Shown here: positions 2,358-19,370 of the stretch, piece after piece | How positions within the stretch are numbered: position 1 is the stretch's first letter | Layout: each line of letters opens with the position of its first letter | Virus record (IMG/VR): IMGVR_UViG_3300007512_000009 | Location: 1 to 64,000 of that record | From: a virus | Strand: one strand, 5' to 3' | DNA: 64,000 bases | Notes under the pieces: generated by a model | What the model was told of the DNA's origin: nothing | Seen by the model: only the letters and a program-made list of their open reading frames with translations | The model's database searches: none | Made by a program: the position numbers and the translations under genes

Positions 2358-2824
2358 TTTCATTTAAGCAATACATCACAGAGTTATTCGACAATCCACT
2401 GAAATGGAAAGAGTTTATCAAATCACCGAGAGCAAGAAAAGCAGAGTTTCGTGTAGGTGACTTTGGATATATTATCACTATTGAAATAGGTGACAAAGGA
2501 ATAGCACAACGAATGGGCGAAAAAGTGGCAGCATCAATTGAGTTTGGACTTGCAGATGAAAAAGGTGTATCAAAAGACGGTAGACAAAATAAACACAAAA
2601 TCTTAAACACAGGCAATGCAGGTTTAGTATTCTCTACAGTCATTGATTATGCAAAATATGTTATCAAACAAGAAGGTATCGGTAAGGTCATATTCACTGG
2701 ATGGGAGCCGTCACGACAAAAGTTATATTGGAAGTTGATGAAACGATTTTCGGGAAGCATTTTTAAGGGTGGTGTCGAACGAAAAGGTTCACGGTTCGTT
2801 GGACATATAGACAAGATAAAATAA
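2354..2824 (+). CDS. Hypothetical protein, paralogue family A
   Basis: Leader MISFKQYITELFDNPLKW. Motif TGNAGLVFSTVIDYAKY...SRQKLYWKLMKRF. Confidence 0.8.
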   Translation: MISFKQYITELFDNPLKWKEFIKSPRARKAEFRVGDFGYIITIEIGDKGIAQRMGEKVAASIEFGLADEKGVSKDGRQNKHKILNTGNAGLVFSTVIDYAKYVIKQEGIGKVIFTGWEPSRQKLYWKLMKRFSGSIFKGGVERKGSRFVGHIDKIK

Positions 2825-3180
2825 TGAAATCATTTAAAGAATTTGTTAACGAACATTATGATGAATACGGTATTCCAATGGATGGTGGATTGAACCATGA
2901 CCATGATGGTATGGGACCACATAGTCATCCATGGGATGCACCGTTTGATTACGATAATTGGCCTCCATTAGAAGATTGGGAGAAGGAATGGGACCCAGAT
3001 GACCAAGACGGTGATGGGAAAAAAAATTGGGAAGACGATGATTATGTTCCACCAATTCCATGGGACGAAAACAATCCAGACCACCCAGATTATGTTCCTC
3101 CAGGCCCCGTTGGACCATTTTACCCAAACGCCCCTTTATACCCAAGCGACCCACCACAAGACCCACATTGGATAGTTTAA
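2824..3180 (+). CDS. Pro/Asp/Trp-rich peptide with capsid-targeting-like leader
   Basis: Leader MKSFKEFVNE. DQDGDGKKNWEDDD loop. Confidence 0.75.
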   Translation: MKSFKEFVNEHYDEYGIPMDGGLNHDHDGMGPHSHPWDAPFDYDNWPPLEDWEKEWDPDDQDGDGKKNWEDDDYVPPIPWDENNPDHPDYVPPGPVGPFYPNAPLYPSDPPQDPHWIV

Positions 3181-3181
3181 C

Positions 3182-3616
3182 ATGGGTTTATTTTCTTCAC
3201 CATCTGAAATCGACATACAGTATGAAAACGACACTGATATAAGAGGTACATTTAAAGCAGGTGATACCGACTATAAAGTGTGGGGTAGACACAACTACCT
3301 AATGAGCGGAACTAGTTTGGGTGAGAATGTGTGGGAAATGTTTTTCGCTATGTGTGAAGATGATGACAAAATTTATGGTTTGCATGACACCAAACCAAAC
3401 GGTGCAGGAAATGCAGCCAAGGTGTTTGCAACGGTGATTGAATTCATGAGATATGTAAATAAAAAACATCAACCAAGCGATTTTGTTTTCTCTGCAAAAG
3501 ATGAAAAGCAACAAAGAATATACCTAAAGTTGATTGAAAGATATCAAAAACTTGGGGAAATAAATAACATATCCACCTCTGAAAAAGGAAACATAATTAA
3601 ATTTGAAGTCGTTTAA
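3182..3616 (+). CDS. Hypothetical protein, paralogue family A (no leader)
   Basis: Motif GAGNAAKVFATVIEFMRY...FSAKDEKQQRIYLKLIERY. Confidence 0.75.
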   Translation: MGLFSSPSEIDIQYENDTDIRGTFKAGDTDYKVWGRHNYLMSGTSLGENVWEMFFAMCEDDDKIYGLHDTKPNGAGNAAKVFATVIEFMRYVNKKHQPSDFVFSAKDEKQQRIYLKLIERYQKLGEINNISTSEKGNIIKFEVV

Positions 3617-4811: not shown

Positions 4812-4819
4812 TATAAATA
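4812..4819 (+). promoter_or_regulatory. T4-type late promoter TATAAATA
   Basis: Exact octamer in the intergenic gap upstream of the ORF at 4864. Confidence 0.75.
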
Positions 4820-9589: not shown

Positions 9590-9597
9590 TATAAATA
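9590..9597 (+). promoter_or_regulatory. T4-type late promoter TATAAATA
   Basis: Exact octamer upstream of 9622, followed by an AGAGGA RBS. Confidence 0.75.
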
Positions 9598-10574: not shown

Positions 10575-11150
10575 ATGGTAGCGATATTTGACACATTTGT
10601 TGCTTACAAATTCATTAAAATCTTGACTACACCGTGGGAAAAAACAGACGCATTTAAACTCGGATTGATTGACAAAAAGGGTAATCCTCTTGTTAAACGT
10701 TCTAAGTTGAAAACCGATAAACAAAAGAAAGCATACACCATCGTTCATGTTCTAGTTTGGAACATAAAAAGATTATTAGATAAAATACCAATGACCCGCA
10801 CAAAACTGGGTTCGTTTGCTACTGCACTATGGTTACTTAAAGACAAAAAAGTAATTAAAAAGAAAGATACAGTAGAGAGTGTCTTTCTTGAATATACTGG
10901 TTTAAAACTAAAAAAGAAAAACATTATGGAATCATATCTAGATGGTGATAACCAAATAAAGGCTGGTATTTACATGTCTAGAAACACACTTCCTGAATTA
11001 TATGACTTTATAGATAATAAGGATACTATCATAGTTGAGCAGGAAACCCCTGAGGGTGAAATGTTAGGTGTTTTTATTTTTTCAGGTATCCATAAGAAAA
11101 CAGGTAATAAGGTGGTATTTTCAAATGAAGACGTTCTCAGAATTAGTTGA
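10575..11150 (+). CDS. Conserved T4-like phage hypothetical protein
   Basis: AYKFIKILTTPWEKTDAFKLGLIDKKG N-terminal pattern. Confidence 0.75.
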   Translation: MVAIFDTFVAYKFIKILTTPWEKTDAFKLGLIDKKGNPLVKRSKLKTDKQKKAYTIVHVLVWNIKRLLDKIPMTRTKLGSFATALWLLKDKKVIKKKDTVESVFLEYTGLKLKKKNIMESYLDGDNQIKAGIYMSRNTLPELYDFIDNKDTIIVEQETPEGEMLGVFIFSGIHKKTGNKVVFSNEDVLRIS

Positions 11151-14100
11151 TAGTTTAAATGAAGATATAATATCCGAAGCAGTACCTGCTATGTCTTCTG
11201 GTAAGTCCGTAGCATCTTCTATGACCAATGCCACTGTTTCAAACCAAACGGCATACGCAGCCAAACCTATGGGTTGGAACAGATTAATAACAAGAGATGG
11301 TAGGGTAACTGCACCAACTACAAAGAAAGATTTTGTAAGAAACCTAATATCAATTATCGGTCAAGAAGAAGCAGAAAAATACCACAACGAATTTAAAGAA
11401 TATGTAGATTTGTTATGGGGTAAACGTGCTCAAGGTCATAGCGATTTGATGATTGACGTTGAAAAATCATTTGATAAATCAAACAGACCATACACTGAAT
11501 TTGAATTTACCACCACTGACGTTGAAAACATGAGGGATGGTCAAGGTGGTTATAGAGATGATGGTCAAGGTGGTTACGATGATGGTCGACAACCGACAAT
11601 GGATATCCAAGGTGGCGGTTACGATGGGCCTCTTATTGAACCACCAGATTGGACTGGGATATTTCCAACTACTGATGTATGTGCAAACCCGCCCTGTGGT
11701 CCACAGGATAGACCAATCCCACCACACAAACCATTTACAATAGGTCATGAAGGGGAAGTCGAAGATATACCACCACACACTGGGGCTTGTGAGTTCCCAC
11801 CTTGTTATGTAGACACTGGTGGTGACATCAACGTACAAACTCAAGACCCAAACCTAGGAATTGGGGATAGTGGAGAAGATGACCCTGACCCAATAGATAC
11901 CTCAAGTGTTGGTGGTGGTGACACAGTAATACCACCAACCATAGACGTTCAGACACAATCTGGAGATTCTAGTATAACACCAAGCGGTACTATTGACCCA
12001 ACAGACGATAATCTTTACATCGGTGGTGGTGATACCGACCCCGTCGACCCTGACGATGATTTTGAACTAAAAGGTAAAAAGAAAAAATGGTCAAATTATA
12101 ATGCATTTTTAAATGCTATGGGGTGGGATAAAAAATATGCAGTACAAGAAAAGTACACTTTAAATGATTTTCGTAGCAACAGTTTAAGTGAAGCAGAAAC
12201 GTTGCACTGGAATACCTTAGACGATGCTGAGAAAAAAGATTTCGCTAAACACGCTAAAATGAATGCTAATATTGTTTTGAAAAAGTCTTGGAAACAACTA
12301 AAATCTTCTGAGAAGAAAAAGTTAGCACAGATGATTAAGAAAACAACTGGTGGTGAGTTTGCTCTTGAAGAAGAACTCACACCTTCCCAAGCAAAGAAGA
12401 AAGAAGAAATCGTTCTTTCATTGAAGAAAAAGAAGAAAGAATTTCAAGAACGATATGGTAATGACTGGGAAAGTGTGATGCATGCGACTGCTACTAAGAT
12501 GGCAAAGAAAAATGAATCCATTAATGAAGACGACAATACCATAGGGATGGAACAATTAACTGCGTTGTTGGGTAGATGGGGTTCATCAGTTGTTCCAGGC
12601 ACGCCCCCTGATTACGACGGAGATGGCGTTGTGAACATGGCAGACATTTTGTGGCTTCTTGACCACTGGGGAGAAGATATTATAATTGGTTTCAATGGTG
12701 ATGACCAAGAAACACCACAGTTGGGTCTTGCACCATCTATTAAAAACAATGGTAACAAGGGTATATTGTCACGTGGTTTATTTGGTGAATCTATGTTGAG
12801 AGAAAGACCTACACCTCCCACACCTACCAAATATCCACAATCACCATATCCACCAAGACCACCTGACCCCATACTTCCAGGCGATGTTGTACCTGTGTCA
12901 CCAGATGGTGAACCATGGGACATCGAGGAAGCAATCGTTCGTGGTGATAGAAGCGGTGGAATGCCAACAGGTGCAGACCGTGGTAGTGATGAAAAACCAT
13001 TAATGAAGTGGTTGACTGAACTAGAAAGAGAACTAAAGAAAATGCGTTCTTCTTATGATAACGTAGATGCAGATGTTGCTATTTGGTTATATGGTAAGGG
13101 ACGTTCAGCAAAACAAACTGCAAAAGTCCTTGCTACCAGAAAAGAATCCGTTGAACTGGGTGAAGCAAAGATTTCCAGAAACCCTCAACTAAAAATCGGA
13201 CTCCATAAAGGAATCTCCGTTGGTAAGGGTAAAAAAGTCATCCTATCTAAAGGAATAAAGGGTAAAGGATGGACTCTAAATGCGGGTGACGAAGTAATTG
13301 CTTATCCGTATGATGGTGACAGGGTTGCAATACTCAATCCCAATAACGCTTGGGAGTTTGTAGCAAAACGACACATCAAAGGTGGATTTAGAGAATCCGC
13401 TAACGAAGCAGTAGATGAAGCAAAAGACAAACAAGGACATGTTACATTTGAGTTTAAATCACTTGCAGATTCATCAAAATTTGAAAAAGAGTTGAGAATT
13501 CTTAAACGAAAATTTAGTAAAATGTTCAATACCAAGTTATCTGGAAAAGAAGTGACCATACTTTTTGATAAAAGGTTTAGTACAAAAGATGAAGAATTCA
13601 GCACAAAAGATGTAGATATGGTTAGGGTTTTACAGCAAAAGCATAAAGGAAATCTATTAGATTGGTCTGGTAAAAACCCATTCGGTGTTGACACCAGACT
13701 ATTGAAAAAATCTGCATCAGACCTACGAAAAGAATCCGTAGATGCAACACGTTTTGTACGTGCACATGGTAAAACACCACGTGGTTCGGGAACTTGGTTC
13801 TTTACAATCCATCGAGGCGGTATTGAATTCGATAAGCATAAAGAAGGTAAAGATTATGTTAAAATCAAAGATACTTATTATACAGCCGCTGCCAAGAAAG
13901 CAGAAAAAATGCTTAAAAGTAAAAAACTATTTGTTGCTGAATCTGTAATTGTTAATGAAGAACTTGACCTAAGAGCATTTATTGAAAAAATCAAAAAAGC
14001 CTTTAAGATGAGGGATTTCGATAAAAGTGAACGAGCAAGAGCAAAAAGGATAAAAAAAGCAAACAGACAGTATAGTAAACTTTTAGGTCTACATGCTTCT

Positions 14101-14838
14101 TTTGACCCACTTGCTGAAGCAACCGTTTCTGAAGCACGAACGAAAGATGCTATCTTGGTTGTGCTCGATTCAATTGAAAAACTATCTAAGAAACACAAAT
14201 CAACCGTTGACAACATAGTTAAAGATACCAAACTTAAAAAAGATTTTGTGCAAGATGCAGTAGAATTTTGGTTGGACGATAAGAAAATCAAAAAGATGGG
14301 GTCTGGAAGGAATACCCATTACATGCCAGAATCTAACAGATATAGTCTTAGTGATTTTTTTGAATCAGTAGAAGAAGAAACTCCTGCTACAAACACAGCA
14401 GGTGTTGCTCATACTGGTGATGACCCAAGAGTTGGGATTAAAAAGAAAAAGAAGAAAAAGAAGAAAGGTGAATTATCCCCTAGAGGTATGACGATGATGA
14501 TGGATAATGCACAAGAAATTGGTGAATCCCTTGAACGTTCACTTCGTAGTTTAGCAACAAGTGATGAAACACCAAGATTTAGAAATGAATATTGTGGTCA
14601 TCCTGTTTTCAAGGTGAGCGAAGGTGAATTTGGTAAATGCAAAACTAGACGAGCAAAGGGTGAACGATGGAACAAATTCTTTGAGGATGATTCACCAAAT
14701 TATGGTGTTATTAGAAAATACTCAAGACGAAATCCAAATAAACCAATTGTTATTCAGAATGAACTAAATGGTGAAATGTCGATTTATCGTCGCAGAATGA
14801 ATGACCAACGACTAAAGCACAATAGAAGGATGAAATAA
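11125..14838 (+). CDS. Large mosaic putative head-internal polyprotein
   Basis: Start moved to ATG at 11125 (MKTFSELVDSLNE). Modules are separated by E-rich linkers. Contains a dockerin-like motif and a C-terminal GHPVFKV...RWNKF...IRKY...NPNKPIVIQNE..GEM domain of T4-like type. Confidence 0.8.
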   Translation: MKTFSELVDSLNEDIISEAVPAMSSGKSVASSMTNATVSNQTAYAAKPMGWNRLITRDGRVTAPTTKKDFVRNLISIIGQEEAEKYHNEFKEYVDLLWGKRAQGHSDLMIDVEKSFDKSNRPYTEFEFTTTDVENMRDGQGGYRDDGQGGYDDGRQPTMDIQGGGYDGPLIEPPDWTGIFPTTDVCANPPCGPQDRPIPPHKPFTIGHEGEVEDIPPHTGACEFPPCYVDTGGDINVQTQDPNLGIGDSGEDDPDPIDTSSVGGGDTVIPPTIDVQTQSGDSSITPSGTIDPTDDNLYIGGGDTDPVDPDDDFELKGKKKKWSNYNAFLNAMGWDKKYAVQEKYTLNDFRSNSLSEAETLHWNTLDDAEKKDFAKHAKMNANIVLKKSWKQLKSSEKKKLAQMIKKTTGGEFALEEELTPSQAKKKEEIVLSLKKKKKEFQERYGNDWESVMHATATKMAKKNESINEDDNTIGMEQLTALLGRWGSSVVPGTPPDYDGDGVVNMADILWLLDHWGEDIIIGFNGDDQETPQLGLAPSIKNNGNKGILSRGLFGESMLRERPTPPTPTKYPQSPYPPRPPDPILPGDVVPVSPDGEPWDIEEAIVRGDRSGGMPTGADRGSDEKPLMKWLTELERELKKMRSSYDNVDADVAIWLYGKGRSAKQTAKVLATRKESVELGEAKISRNPQLKIGLHKGISVGKGKKVILSKGIKGKGWTLNAGDEVIAYPYDGDRVAILNPNNAWEFVAKRHIKGGFRESANEAVDEAKDKQGHVTFEFKSLADSSKFEKELRILKRKFSKMFNTKLSGKEVTILFDKRFSTKDEEFSTKDVDMVRVLQQKHKGNLLDWSGKNPFGVDTRLLKKSASDLRKESVDATRFVRAHGKTPRGSGTWFFTIHRGGIEFDKHKEGKDYVKIKDTYYTAAAKKAEKMLKSKKLFVAESVIVNEELDLRAFIEKIKKAFKMRDFDKSERARAKRIKKANRQYSKLLGLHASFDPLAEATVSEARTKDAILVVLDSIEKLSKKHKSTVDNIVKDTKLKKDFVQDAVEFWLDDKKIKKMGSGRNTHYMPESNRYSLSDFFESVEEETPATNTAGVAHTGDDPRVGIKKKKKKKKKGELSPRGMTMMMDNAQEIGESLERSLRSLATSDETPRFRNEYCGHPVFKVSEGEFGKCKTRRAKGERWNKFFEDDSPNYGVIRKYSRRNPNKPIVIQNELNGEMSIYRRRMNDQRLKHNRRMK

Positions 14839-14839
14839 G

Positions 14840-15034
14840 ATGGGTATTTTTAAAGATAAATGGGCAGAGAACCTGATGAGGTCTAAAAAAGAACAAGCCA
14901 GTGAACCTTCGGAAGGTCTTGGTGATACAGTTAAGAAAATTACTAATGCTATGGGTATAAAACCTTGCGACGAGTGTGAGGAGAGAAGGAAAAGTCTTAA
15001 TAAGAAATTCCCATTTAAAAGGAAGAACAAATAA
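14840..15034 (+). CDS. Small CxxC protein
   Basis: GLGDTVKKITNAMGIKPCDECEERRKSLNKKFP. Confidence 0.7.
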   Translation: MGIFKDKWAENLMRSKKEQASEPSEGLGDTVKKITNAMGIKPCDECEERRKSLNKKFPFKRKNK

Positions 15035-15364
15035 GTGTCTTTACAAAACAAAATATATCTACAGAGAATACAACAAACCATTAAAGAACAATCCGCACAC
15101 GGCCATGAAGGACAATCTTGTGAGGAAGCACATCCAGACATGTCACATGAGGAGTGGGAAGCAACCCACGATGACCATGAAGGGTGTTCAACCTGTGGAG
15201 AATCCGTTATTACTGAAGAACAATTAACTGAAGCATTAATGGTTTTAAGTGAAGATAAAAAAGAAGTATGGAATCCATTTCCAGAGAGTTGGTGGAAACC
15301 TGAGCCTAAAGAAGAACCGACACTTGGTAGTCCAATGAAACCATTACATAAGTACAAAGTATGA
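15035..15364 (+). CDS. His/Cys-rich hypothetical protein with leader type 2
   Basis: GTG start. Leader MSLQNKIYLQRIQQTIKE, then HGHEGQSCEEAHP...CSTC. Confidence 0.7.
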   Translation: MSLQNKIYLQRIQQTIKEQSAHGHEGQSCEEAHPDMSHEEWEATHDDHEGCSTCGESVITEEQLTEALMVLSEDKKEVWNPFPESWWKPEPKEEPTLGSPMKPLHKYKV

Positions 15365-15657
15365 CTTTACAAAACAGACAATATTATAATAACATCCACG
15401 GTCTTAAAGAGGCTAGAGAGAAAACGCTTACTGTACTGTTTAAAACAGACGAGCAGATGATGGAACGGATATATGAAAGAGATTTGAAACGTGAGTTTAA
15501 GAAACTTTATAAGTCTACTAACTATGTAAAAAAGGGAAACTTCCGAGGTTTTGAGGTTGTATTCAAAGGTGAAGTAAAAGAACTAGTAAAAGTAACGAAA
15601 TACATTGAGAAATTGGACAGGAAAAATAAAATCTACGATAGCAAGGTGTTTTCATGA
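15361..15657 (+). CDS. Hypothetical protein with leader type 2 variant
   Basis: Leader MTLQNRQYYNNIHGLKE. ATGA overlaps on both sides. Confidence 0.7.
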   Translation: MTLQNRQYYNNIHGLKEAREKTLTVLFKTDEQMMERIYERDLKREFKKLYKSTNYVKKGNFRGFEVVFKGEVKELVKVTKYIEKLDRKNKIYDSKVFS

Positions 15658-15905
15658 AATCGTTTAAAGAATATCTAGAACTAAAAGAACATGACCCATG
15701 GAATTATCCAAACATTGACCACGACACATATCATGACTGGCTAAATTCATTGTCGTGGTGGGACAGACTTTTTGGAGTCCCTGGCCCTGAATACATGCCC
15801 AAAGGTTGGAGAAAACCAGTACCAGTACCACCAACACCATCAAAACCTGCCGACCCAATGAACCCTACAGACCCTTCAAACCCCATGCGTCGAGAAACAT
15901 ACTGA
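15654..15905 (+). CDS. Pro/Trp-rich peptide with capsid-targeting-like leader
   Basis: Leader MKSFKEYLE. Confidence 0.75.
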   Translation: MKSFKEYLELKEHDPWNYPNIDHDTYHDWLNSLSWWDRLFGVPGPEYMPKGWRKPVPVPPTPSKPADPMNPTDPSNPMRRETY

Positions 15906-15920
15906 GTAAGGAAAACAAAA

Positions 15921-16442
15921 ATGAAAAAAATAATCGCACTGACAATATTATTATTAGCAACAACCGCAGTTGCTCAGAATCTGGAGGTAAATCATGATGA
16001 AAAAACTAATAATGGTGTTCGCAACGTTGACAATGACAAGCGGATGCGAAATGTTCCAAGAGGTGACTGGAGAGGCGCCAGCGAACACATCGAGTACAGT
16101 CGTGGACAGCGTACGAGAGCAGAGAGAACAGACGGACGAAATAACGAACGCATCAGAGGTGATTGGAAACGACTTAAAGAAGATAGACGACCAAGCAAAT
16201 TCAATTTTGAACGACATCGCACTAGTTCCAGAGGACAGAAATTACAACATCGACCCGACTCTAGAGAGCATAGAGGATTCCGCAGAAACAATCAAGGAAA
16301 CCGTGGACAACTCTCAGAAAGAGCAAATAAGGATAGACGAATCTCTAGAGGATTTAGAGCAAGCAAACAATCGTGTTGCTGCCGCTGTGGGTCAGATAGA
16401 GGAACTAGAGGACCTAGTCACAGAGTACGAACAGTCCGATAG
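15921..16442 (+). CDS. Secreted Arg-rich protein overlapping the lipoprotein gene in another frame
   Basis: AAGGA RBS and signal peptide MKKIIALTILLLATTAVA. Frame stays open across a 449-nt overlap. Confidence 0.6.
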   Translation: MKKIIALTILLLATTAVAQNLEVNHDEKTNNGVRNVDNDKRMRNVPRGDWRGASEHIEYSRGQRTRAERTDGRNNERIRGDWKRLKEDRRPSKFNFERHRTSSRGQKLQHRPDSREHRGFRRNNQGNRGQLSERANKDRRISRGFRASKQSCCCRCGSDRGTRGPSHRVRTVR

Positions 16443-16908
16443 GGAAGTTCGTAAAGAAGCACTAGAAAACTTATACGAGAACATTGCATTGTTCTTCACA
16501 ATTGGTTTTGCACTTATTGTGGGTGGTATATTTGTAATGTTCTGGGTAAGCAGAAAACTCGGTGGGACGATATTAGCAATCGGATTCCTTACTGTAGGTT
16601 TCGCAACCGCAAGTCAGTATTATCTTGAAGAGATGGCTCAAGTTGGGTTATACATCTTTATTGGTGGGTTCTTATTGACTGCTGTTATTGTTGGATTTAT
16701 GTTACTTAACGGAAAACATAACGAAAAAGCATTACTTGAAATTGTAGAACTCATTGAAGAAATGAAAGAACACCTTGACGATGAAGAGAGAAAAGAAATC
16801 TTTGGACGAGATGGGTTTGCTAGTCGTCTAACAAGTCCTATGACAAAGAAAATAGTATCTCAAATCAAAATCAAAAATGGATTTAAAAATTTAAACAAAA
16901 ATAAATAA
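15994..16908 (+). CDS. Lipoprotein with periplasmic coiled coil and C-terminal TM helices (unimolecular-spanin-like architecture)
   Basis: GGAGGT RBS; lipobox TSG-C18; about 140 aa of acidic heptads, then about 3 hydrophobic segments and a soluble tail. Confidence 0.75.
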   Translation: MMKKLIMVFATLTMTSGCEMFQEVTGEAPANTSSTVVDSVREQREQTDEITNASEVIGNDLKKIDDQANSILNDIALVPEDRNYNIDPTLESIEDSAETIKETVDNSQKEQIRIDESLEDLEQANNRVAAAVGQIEELEDLVTEYEQSDREVRKEALENLYENIALFFTIGFALIVGGIFVMFWVSRKLGGTILAIGFLTVGFATASQYYLEEMAQVGLYIFIGGFLLTAVIVGFMLLNGKHNEKALLEIVELIEEMKEHLDDEERKEIFGRDGFASRLTSPMTKKIVSQIKIKNGFKNLNKNK

Positions 16909-16952: not shown

Positions 16953-17351
16953 ATGAAACCGAACAATTTTAGAAGTCTAAGCGAATCAGCGAGAAAGGTA
17001 TTAAATAGAGAATACACATGTTCTCCTACTAAAGAGCAGTTACAATCACTTATCACTGAGCAAGGTACAACCATGCCTGGCGAGGCAGCAATTCAATCAA
17101 TCATGAGCAACTGGGGTAATAATAACTGTGGTGGCCCATGGTGTGGAGATTTTAATGGTGATGGAGTTGTTGATGTACAAGACTTGCTATGGGTTCTTCA
17201 CAATTGGGGAGATTTTGGTCCTCAAGGCGCTCAAGCACCTGCACCTACTTTGACTACACAACGACCATCACAACGACCAACAACTGGAGGAGTCATGCGT
17301 CCCCCATCACAACGACCACAACGAAGCAATTTTGGGATTCGGAAGACGTAG
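16953..17351 (+). CDS. Dockerin-like/EF-hand motif protein with leader type 3
   Basis: Leader MKPNNFRSLSESARKVL. IMSNWG...CGDFNGDGVVDVQDLLWVLHNWG. Confidence 0.75.
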   Translation: MKPNNFRSLSESARKVLNREYTCSPTKEQLQSLITEQGTTMPGEAAIQSIMSNWGNNNCGGPWCGDFNGDGVVDVQDLLWVLHNWGDFGPQGAQAPAPTLTTQRPSQRPTTGGVMRPPSQRPQRSNFGIRKT

Positions 17352-18442: not shown

Positions 18443-18580
18443 TTAGAATATTGTCAAGAGGAATCGTCCGATGACAACACCGATAAAAAAACCACCAACA
18501 ATAAACACCCCAGTTCCAATGCGTTCTCCCACACTACCTTCCATCCTTAATAATTTAATAATTCTGTTCCATCTCTTCAT
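18443..18580 (-). CDS. 45-aa membrane peptide (not in ORF track)
   Basis: MKRWNRIIKLLRMEGSVGERIGTGVFIVGGFFIGVVIGRFLLTIF. Fills the gap between the protease and RuvC-like genes. Confidence 0.6.
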   Translation of the reverse strand: MKRWNRIIKLLRMEGSVGERIGTGVFIVGGFFIGVVIGRFLLTIF

Positions 18581-19370
18581 TCAACATCTCCAATTCTATC
18601 CAATCTAGGTGTTTAGCAATAATAACTGCTGAACATTCCGTTATATCGTCAACACCTTTATAATTTTTCAGTACCGTAAACGTGCTTATAATCCCAACCA
18701 AGTATTTTTTACCTTCAAATCTGGTAAAAACCCCACCACCGCTATCACCAAACCAAACTGATATTGGTCTTGGGATAAATTTCATAGTATTTGGTTCTTC
18801 AACAATTGTACCGAAGTACCTGAACACTTTGTATTTACTGTATTTTTTATATCCAAAGGAGAAACCGACAGTTGTTATTGGGTCATACCTTTCCATCCAT
18901 TCAACACATCCAATTTTTGCGGGTTTGTATTTTGAATCACACTCTAAGAAAATAATACCAATATCATTTTTTACCCGCCCTAATGTATTGCTGTAATGGG
19001 GATGCAACACCATTTTCTTGACACCAATTTCTTCATCGTCACCAAACTTTACCGAGAAAATTGAATCATCGTCTATACAATGACCTGCCGTTAGAACTAC
19101 ATCAGGACGAATAAGAGTACCACTACCAATTAATCTTCCATCCGAGTCATGTAGACTACCTACAGACGGATAAGGGTCGTTGCCTTGAGTTACCCTGTTG
19201 AACCATTCTGATAGTGGGTCAACAAGAAGAACGGAATCAACAGGAGTAACAGTGTTGTTTATTTCTGGTGTGGGGACTGGGACTAAATCGGAGGATGAAT
19301 TTCTGCTAACACATCCTATTATTAATAAGCATAACAAAAGGACTGAGAAATATTTAGTTGTCCTAACCAT
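18555..19370 (-). CDS. Trypsin-like (S1) serine protease, lipoprotein
   Basis: Lipobox LIIG-C. Triad motifs VLTAGHC, NDIGII, GDSGGG. Confidence 0.9.
   Translation of the reverse strand: MVRTTKYFSVLLLCLLIIGCVSRNSSSDLVPVPTPEINNTVTPVDSVLLVDPLSEWFNRVTQGNDPYPSVGSLHDSDGRLIGSGTLIRPDVVLTAGHCIDDDSIFSVKFGDDEEIGVKKMVLHPHYSNTLGRVKNDIGIIFLECDSKYKPAKIGCVEWMERYDPITTVGFSFGYKKYSKYKVFRYFGTIVEEPNTMKFIPRPISVWFGDSGGGVFTRFEGKKYLVGIISTFTVLKNYKGVDDITECSAVIIAKHLDWIELEMLNEEMEQNY

Follow-up and report, generated by a model that had tools for sequence, protein, structure and literature searches.

The A/B locus

The DNA considered here, called the window in what follows, is the first 64 kb of a 126-kb viral contig of IMG/VR (IMGVR_UViG_3300007512_000009), which is about 70% complete and has a G+C content of 37%. 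The phage is identified as a T4-like myovirus by several markers, among them genes for the baseplate wedge, hub and tube cap and for a RuvC-like resolvase, and it belongs to a lineage of uncultured marine T4-like myoviruses. The subject of this work is a pair of plus-strand open reading frames (ORFs), A and B, which lie in different frames and share 449 nt (Table 1). A preliminary description of the locus had given these coordinates correctly. Its picture of A as the embedded partner did not hold: B, which is in the +1 frame relative to A, starts 73 nt inside A, and A ends within B. As the same description had stated, each ORF has its own ribosome binding site (RBS) and its own predicted export signal, AAGGA and a signal peptide of the n-h-c type ending in AVA-Q for A, and GGAGGT and a lipobox (TSGC) for B. 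The segment encoding the signal peptide is the sole part of A that is clear of both the coding sequence and the RBS of B. The 'EV' conserved after the A signal peptide is due to the GGAGGT of B, which reads Leu-Glu-Val in frame A.

The locus was compared with 79 viral loci carrying B homologues of 30-89% identity and with three close metagenome contigs. No relative of it was found in cultured-phage DNA or by tblastn.

Table 1. Features of the A/B locus (positions are those of the window; SD, Shine-Dalgarno; TM, transmembrane; pI, isoelectric point)
Feature	Position	Strand	Description
ORF upstream of A	15654..15905	+	Ends 15 nt before the A start
SD-like AAGGA of A	15908..15912	+	8 nt before the ATG, 3 nt past the upstream stop
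ORF A	15921..16442	+	173 aa; overprinted; signal peptide followed by an Arg-rich (35 Arg), predicted-disordered basic body
Signal peptide of A	15921..15977	+	MKK, 15-residue hydrophobic core, AVA-Q; n-h-c; predicted cleavage and export
SD GGAGGT of B	15983..15988	+	5 nt ahead of the first B ATG
ORF B	15994..16908	+	304 aa; lipoprotein-type membrane protein; ancestral gene
Dual-coding stretch	15994..16442	+	449 nt
Lipoprotein signal peptide of B	15994..16047	+	Lipobox TSGC, Cys18; +2 residue Glu
Periplasmic part of B, aa 19-160	16048..16473	+	Acidic heptad-repeat helical hairpin, net charge -26, pI 4.1
Predicted TM helices of B, three (approximately aa 161-184, 187-208, 215-238)	16474..16707	+	AlphaFold2 model, hydrophobic segments
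C-terminal domain of B	16708..16905	+	Conserved; probably cytoplasmic; K258, F270 and G271 most widely conserved in the family

Avoidance of stop codons in frame A

Each codon of A consists of the third position of one B codon and the first two positions of the next. Because of this register, a stop can arise in A only where a B codon ending in T precedes a codon beginning with AA, AG or GA (hereafter risk codon). None of the 58 risk codons of B in the overlap follows a T-ending codon, compared with 12 of 46 downstream. The Asp and Glu codons, put at about 35 in the preliminary description and said never to follow a T-ending codon within the overlap, number exactly 35, none of them preceded by T. 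T occupies the third position of B codons 19 times in 149 within the overlap and 50 times in 156 beyond it. When only the overlap is considered and the end of A is included, T stands before 18 of 90 harmless and 1 of 59 risky codons (Fisher p = 7e-4), and the single exception is A's own stop. T is thus still used before harmless codons, therefore the avoidance is context-specific.

The probability of this arrangement was estimated by keeping the B protein fixed and drawing synonymous codons from the codon usage of the genome. Approximately 20 stops were expected in frame A, whereas none is observed (analytic P(0) 5e-13). In a scan of both alternative sense frames of 118 genes of the genome (236 frames), frame A was the most extreme (8.5e-13) and led the ranking by five orders of magnitude, the runner-up having a value of 3.6e-7. 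A more conservative test, in which synonymous codons were permuted within the B gene, gave P = 4e-4.

The runner-up lies outside the window, in a gene of 533 aa (84570-86168 of the contig, + strand) that has stop-free runs in both alternative sense frames at codons ~285-434. One of these runs extends over 149 codons and is explained by composition (P ~1e-3). The other, of 66 codons (P 3.6e-7), ranks second in the genome behind A/B.

Retention and loss of frame A among relatives

The preliminary description had proposed dual coding, and a check of this frame for stops in the homologues came out in its favour. The frame is open in about 27 distinct loci (B identity 46-89%), over 160-250 codons and despite saturating synonymous divergence. 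In these loci A has an ATG start, in most of them an SD-like purine run, an N-terminal signal-like hydrophobic segment, and a stop that falls within a few codons of one place, just ahead of the first membrane helix of B. The periplasmic part of their B genes has a third-position T content of 0.12-0.19, the remainder one of 0.25-0.42. Among 31 sequences with an open frame, the frequency of T was 0.00 before risk codons (~1630 sites) and 0.23 before other codons, whereas in 15 sequences with a broken frame it was 0.18-0.23 and 0.33, respectively.

Frame A carries 6-20 stops, with ordinary T usage, in L016, L018-L021, L023, L025, L043-45, L054-56, L059, L062-64 and the whole group of B homologues with 30-34% identity. 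In these loci B directly follows the upstream gene and there is no signal-peptide ORF. The stop-carrying relatives have thus lost the signal-peptide ORF and the T avoidance as well, which is the pattern of gene loss and leaves the proposal of dual coding standing. The acidity of the B hairpin is alike in the sets with and without A (-27 and -26), therefore the B protein does not force the frame to be open. Intermediates of decay were also found: L026 has lost the 5' end of A while its stops are still few, L038/39 have one stop, and L043-45 and L054-56 have 6-10.

The tree of B has the distant group without A (30-34% identity) as its outgroup, and A is found from the base of the main clade. On the whole-protein tree 8-10 changes in the state of A are needed, compared with 5 when the tree is built from the overlapped half and 8 when it is built from the other half. 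The simplest reading of these trees is that A was gained once and lost several times, with some recombination.

The overlap, 449 nt here, reaches about 890 nt in a monophyletic clade (L060, L065-68 and L070; B approximately 50% identical), where the frame is open over 275-296 of the ~300 B codons, including those for the membrane helices and the C-terminal part, with 72-83 risk sites and a third-position T content of ~0.12 throughout. Here P <= 4e-4 was obtained even when only the gene's own codons were permuted. The signal peptide is weak in this clade and absent in L070; an example of the arrangement is L065, with A at 2446-3390 and B at 2501-3409.

On this comparative sequence evidence, A is shown to be an evolutionarily maintained coding frame overprinted on B. 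Selection is visible, as far as sequences can tell, on the start and RBS of A, on its signal peptide and on the absence of stops, and not detectably on its residue sequence. Among 5.8 billion predicted protein clusters, gene callers had reported A-like proteins in 8, and a search of the same clusters for a free-standing A family found none.

Protein A

Asp and Glu codons (GAN) are read as NGA in frame A, which automatically makes A rich in Arg and Gly: the 35 such codons of the overlap appear as 26 Arg and 9 Gly, accounting for 26 of the 35 Arg of the window protein. Predicted mature A has a net charge of about +23 and a pI of 11.6, and across the relatives these values are +18 to +34 and 11-12, with 20-28% Arg. 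A is enriched in residues of high codon degeneracy (R, G, S). In an AlphaFold2 model built with 23 homologues, the mean predicted local distance difference test score (pLDDT) was 47.6, and order was confined to the signal peptide, the remainder being predicted disordered. The n-h-c pattern of the signal peptide is kept across the relatives, while its sequence varies. Searches of Pfam, PHROGs, NCBIfam and PADLOC with A and B gave only sub-threshold coiled-coil, SMC or LptF/G noise.

Several lineages (L014, L022, L024, L032, L033, L046, L048, L038; e.g. A residues ~25-55 of L033:2311-2970) have an extra helical segment after the A signal peptide, with the motif G-K-[LI]-[ST]-P-E-[EQ]-A-[KR]-E-R-F. 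It gave weak SHOCT-like/DUF1707 matches in Pfam (E 1e-3 to 2e-2), and pN/pS values of 0.59 and 1.02 were obtained for it in frames A and B, respectively. This segment is the only residue-level sign of coding in A. Frame B is open there too, and in these lineages B may start further upstream.

Two other possibilities for A were considered and rejected. A is not a lipoprotein, the Cys that occurs in some of the signal peptides being neither conserved nor placed in a lipobox. A programmed frameshift between A and B, which would give an isoform of B with the A signal peptide, was also dismissed: B is provided with a conserved SD, start and lipobox of its own, the position of the A stop varies between lineages, and in one clade A reaches the end of B without a hydrophobic segment.

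Protein B

The B family is confined to viruses, with 386 matches in clusters at 90% and 322 clusters at 50% identity, all named 'hypothetical protein'; the ESM Atlas likewise returned only virus clusters of this name. The lipobox Cys is invariant in all 81 members examined, down to 20% identity, and its surroundings resemble a lipobox. Just 4 of the 81 have Asp as the +2 residue, and if the sorting rules of the host can be assumed, B has the signal of an outer-membrane lipoprotein.

The AlphaFold2 model of B (81 sequences, pLDDT 87.6) is in agreement with the composition given in the preliminary description, namely a lipobox, a coiled coil and TM helices, three hydrophobic helices being predicted. 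The signal helix is followed by a helix at 32-76, a loop at 77-87 and a second helix from 88 onward, which continues straight into the first TM helix; after two further TM helices comes a helical C-terminal domain. A short positive loop (SRKLGG) would fit a location on the inside. No informative relative was found through structure: a sequence-profile search of the PDB returned only generic heptad proteins (MCP, syntaxin, HA2, spike HR1), Foldseek found nothing at E <= 1e-3 in PDB and BFVD, and the hits of a VIA wide search (Z up to 12) were all generic helical hairpins, within the stated noise for helical models.

In distant relatives B is placed after the major-head and tail-tube genes, and in the window it lies in a plus-strand run of small genes. 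Late expression of A and B is plausible, though it is only inferred from this context. The nearest upstream plus-strand copy of the T4 late-promoter-like octamer TATAAATA is at 9590, and none of the 16 copies in the window stands directly before A or B. These 16 copies compare with 8 expected, a number reached by 1 of 100 shuffles, and they are mostly found just 5' of ORFs, e.g. at 4812, 7255, 9590, 19377-, 20345-, 37441, 46787 and 58875 (the minus sign denoting the other strand).

Proposed explanation

Taking these observations together, we consider it probable that A is a real gene and that its product is exported and acts by way of its bulk properties. A would have arisen by overprinting on the older lipoprotein gene B. 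Its translation would begin, with a Sec-type signal peptide, at a separate RBS and ATG 73 nt ahead of B, would pass through the part of B encoding the acidic hairpin and would halt where the membrane helices of B begin. The frame would be kept open by the ban on T-ending B codons before codons beginning with AA, AG or GA. The product would be a disordered polycation of about 150 residues, the charge mirror of the B hairpin. A single late mRNA may serve for both proteins, which would then reach the envelope. There B would be anchored by its three inner-membrane helices and by its lipid, the latter probably in the outer membrane, and its hairpin, long enough to cross a periplasm, could bridge the two membranes. 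A would be a dispensable accessory polycation that binds the acidic hairpin of B or anionic components of the envelope. Since the residue sequence of A is not detectably constrained, its function must lie in export, length and charge.

Several observations weigh against this explanation. In an OLGenie-style count with 11 independent pairs, omega was 1.15-1.2 for A (overlap dNN/dNS 1.15, dSN/dSS 1.21), equal to that in control regions in which this frame is not coding, and about 0.19 for B, although the pairs are partly saturated and recombinant, which weakens the test in both directions. The synonymous-rate ratios of B in the overlap, taken as a possible sign of constraint on A, favour neither side, as they scattered from 0.1 to 2.4 in A-open and A-broken pairs alike, evidently owing to recombination. 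Selection for Arg instead of Gly was looked for at the choice sites of A, as was an extra acidity of B where A is present; neither was seen, so that the positive signals are confined to maintenance of the frame and to the N-terminus. The repeated loss of A indicates that it is dispensable. In L027, L041 and the L060 clade the predicted cleavage site is followed by Pro or the hydrophobic core is weak, and L070 has no signal peptide whatsoever. Sec export of a +23 domain is not assured, and family, profile and fold searches gave no link from A or B to a known pathway. The signal peptide and the basic charge agree with the earlier proposal of an exported basic partner; a conventional folded partner A is not, its residues evolving as if unconstrained.

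A more specific version, which we regard as quite unlikely, is that A and B form a charge-complementary pair in which A clamps or releases the acidic hairpin of B, a helical, class-I-fusion-like, single-chain bridge between the inner and outer membranes that would act in lysis or phage exclusion. Each Asp or Glu codon of B specifies Arg or Gly in register, so that binding would be inherited without selection of its own, and this would result in an omega near 1. The same omega, combined with strict avoidance of stops, is what would be expected if A were translated and selection were on the act of translation, not on the product. The signal peptide might tether the ribosome-mRNA complex to the translocon while the polytopic lipoprotein B is made, or ribosomes in frame A, crossing the start of B, might tune its initiation. 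The dispensability of A, the limitation of conservation to the N-terminal targeting signal and to length, and the coincidence of the A end with the beginning of the B membrane helices would fit this well. However, B is itself equipped with a strong SD and a signal peptide, the SHOCT-like insert is conserved at the residue level in frame A, and tethering up to the membrane helices is at variance with the L060 clade, in which the frame is open through all of B and the signal peptide is weak or absent. We know of no precedent for such a mechanism and hold it to be unlikely.

That A and B constitute a two-component 'overlapped' spanin, with A as the inner-membrane subunit and B as the outer-membrane lipoprotein, or that B is a unimolecular spanin regulated by A, appears decidedly unlikely. 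The layout, a first gene with an N-terminal hydrophobic helix and a +1-frame lipoprotein starting inside it, resembles that of Rz/Rz1 (PMC6139136); in B a hinged two-helix hairpin of periplasm-spanning length connects a lipid anchor with the membrane helices; the +2 residue of B is rarely Asp, B is found among late structural genes in distant relatives, and the genome yielded neither a further spanin candidate nor an endolysin, an absence that means little in a genome ~70% complete. On the other hand, A has a short signal of the cleavable type (AxA), is predicted disordered and has no predicted coiled coil, B differs from o-spanins by its three membrane helices and conserved cytoplasmic domain and from the beta-rich, one-TM u-spanins by its helical periplasmic part (PMC6139136), neither protein matches a spanin family or lies in a lysis cassette, and many phages have B without A. 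There remains the explanation that A is no gene at all, the open frame being a by-product of composition or of another constraint on the B mRNA (purine-rich acidic coding, codon bias) and the hydrophobic N-terminus a chance translation of an AT-rich spacer. Acidic, GA-rich coding does reduce the frequency of stops in frame A, the residues of A are unconstrained, and the other 149-codon run of the genome was accounted for by composition (see above). Yet the equally acidic B genes of relatives without A carry 6-20 stops and normal third-position T, T is avoided before risk codons only, P is still ~1e-12 after conditioning on the B protein sequence, and the open frame always occurs with an upstream ATG, an SD-like site and a signal peptide, which are lost together. 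This explanation is close to refuted.

Neighbouring genes

The gene preceding B in relatives ends in a conserved C-terminal domain of ~80 aa (FAGxxVFxV ... Y/HERW ... NQxIRxYxHxNP), which has no match in Pfam or PHROG. A gene with this type of domain is directly upstream of B in L016, L018, L020, L023, L026, L043, L056, L062 and L063. In the window the domain, at 14600-14838, ends a mosaic protein of 1256 aa (ORF 11068-14838), and four small ORFs (14840-15905) separate this gene from A/B. A dockerin-like motif, with a weak match to Pfam Dockerin_1 (E 0.03), was found in the ORF just 3' of B (16953-17351), and a motif of the same type is present in the 1256-aa protein (12547-12672). On the opposite strand, 1.6 kb downstream (18555-19370), there is a trypsin-like serine protease (Pfam Trypsin, E 3e-11) with a lipoprotein signal, another phage-encoded envelope-targeted protein near A/B.

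The preliminary description had proposed an overlapping lysis or envelope module. The envelope part of this proposal stood, since both products carry envelope-targeting signals; the lysis part was not supported, as A and B have no spanin, holin or endolysin family matches, no lysis cassette and no holin or endolysin neighbours. Pfam lysozyme, Amidase_2, M15_3 and SLT domains were not found in the 126 kb, an absence that weighs little given that the genome is ~70% complete. Outside the window, an ORF of 196 aa (122243-122833 of the contig, + strand) has an N-terminal membrane/lipobox segment (…VMVGC) and the motif AIRTAENGRKGIEFGV; this ORF may encode a membrane-anchored endolysin, muramidase- or transglycosylase-like.

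Significance

Long overlapping genes on the same strand are thought to be rare in large double-stranded DNA (dsDNA) phages and are forbidden by gene callers. A has been left unannotated in spite of the hundreds of members of the B family. A and B are predicted to add two envelope proteins, so far without annotation, to those of abundant marine T4-like phages, in which the machinery of lysis and exclusion is poorly characterised. It is unusual that in a large dsDNA phage a putatively secreted polycation should be the frame-shifted image of an acidic coiled coil. The lineages with the overlap, with a whole-gene overlap, with decay and with none represent a natural experiment on the birth, upkeep and loss of overprinted genes. 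A frame strongly held open while its residues drift bears on the selection of disordered, composition-driven proteins, and the case also bears on the reliability of overlapping-gene detectors of the dN/dS type.

Comparison with known systems

Three kinds of spanin have been defined: i-spanins have an uncleaved N-terminal transmembrane domain (TMD) and a periplasmic domain of coiled-coil helices, o-spanins are small outer-membrane lipoproteins without membrane helices, and u-spanins have a single C-terminal TMD and a periplasmic domain that is mainly beta-strand (PMC6139136). Instead of the first, A has a core of ~15 residues with an AxA site, and its remainder is predicted disordered (pLDDT <50). 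B has the lipobox of an o-spanin, but it is 304 aa long, with three TM helices and a cytoplasmic domain, and in place of the u-spanin TMD and beta-strands it has these three helices, a 65-aa tail and an all-helical periplasmic hairpin. The preliminary description had called B spanin-like; the defining features of i-, o- and u-spanins are found in neither protein. A spanin or lysis role of B, judged from the model, is topologically plausible and unproven.

Like lambda Rz/Rz1 (PMC6139136), the pair consists of two envelope-targeted phage proteins whose genes use different frames of a single piece of DNA; the second gene, in the +1 frame, encodes a lipoprotein and starts inside the first, the first protein has a hydrophobic segment at its N-terminus, and there is a hinged periplasmic element of two helices. 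In contrast to Rz/Rz1, it is the lipoprotein B, not its partner, that holds the coiled coil, and B also has three membrane helices and a cytoplasmic domain, whereas A appears as a disordered polycation with a signal of the cleavable type and without residue-level constraint. A is, moreover, a younger and dispensable gene, and there is neither sequence or family similarity to Rz/Rz1 nor a lysis cassette. T1 gp11 (PMC6139136) resembles B in having an N-terminal lipoprotein signal and membrane helices on the C-terminal side, by which B, too, could bridge both membranes, and the +2 residue of B is mostly not Asp. However, u-spanins are much shorter, with one TMD and mainly beta-strand structure, in contrast to the helical hairpin, the three TMDs and the conserved 65-aa cytoplasmic tail of B.

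Another phage polycation is the 'disruptin' gp28 of phiKT, a cationic peptide acting at lysis, when it disrupts the outer membrane (bioRxiv 10.1101/515445), and its action on the envelope indicates a possible way for A to work. gp28 has 56 aa, is amphipathic-helical and hydrophobically membrane-bound and lacks a signal peptide (10.1101/515445), whereas A would have ~150 aa after processing and is Arg-rich, non-amphipathic and predicted disordered, with a signal peptide. A is likewise cationic (+23), but it is long, has no hydrophobic segment past the signal and no confidently predicted helix.

Overprinted viral genes as such are already known, gene E within D of phiX174 being an example, and A/B is an unannotated case of overprinting. 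Proven viral overlapping genes are enriched in residues of high degeneracy and encode disordered proteins, and overlapping protein pairs often interact, e.g. AAV VP1/AAP (PMC6195259). Like such genes, A is a younger frame on an older conserved gene, predicted disordered, fast-evolving, accessory and unannotated. It differs from them in that the phage has a large dsDNA genome (>126 kb), which is under no pressure for compression, that A has a Sec-type signal, and that the charge of A mirrors the charge of B.

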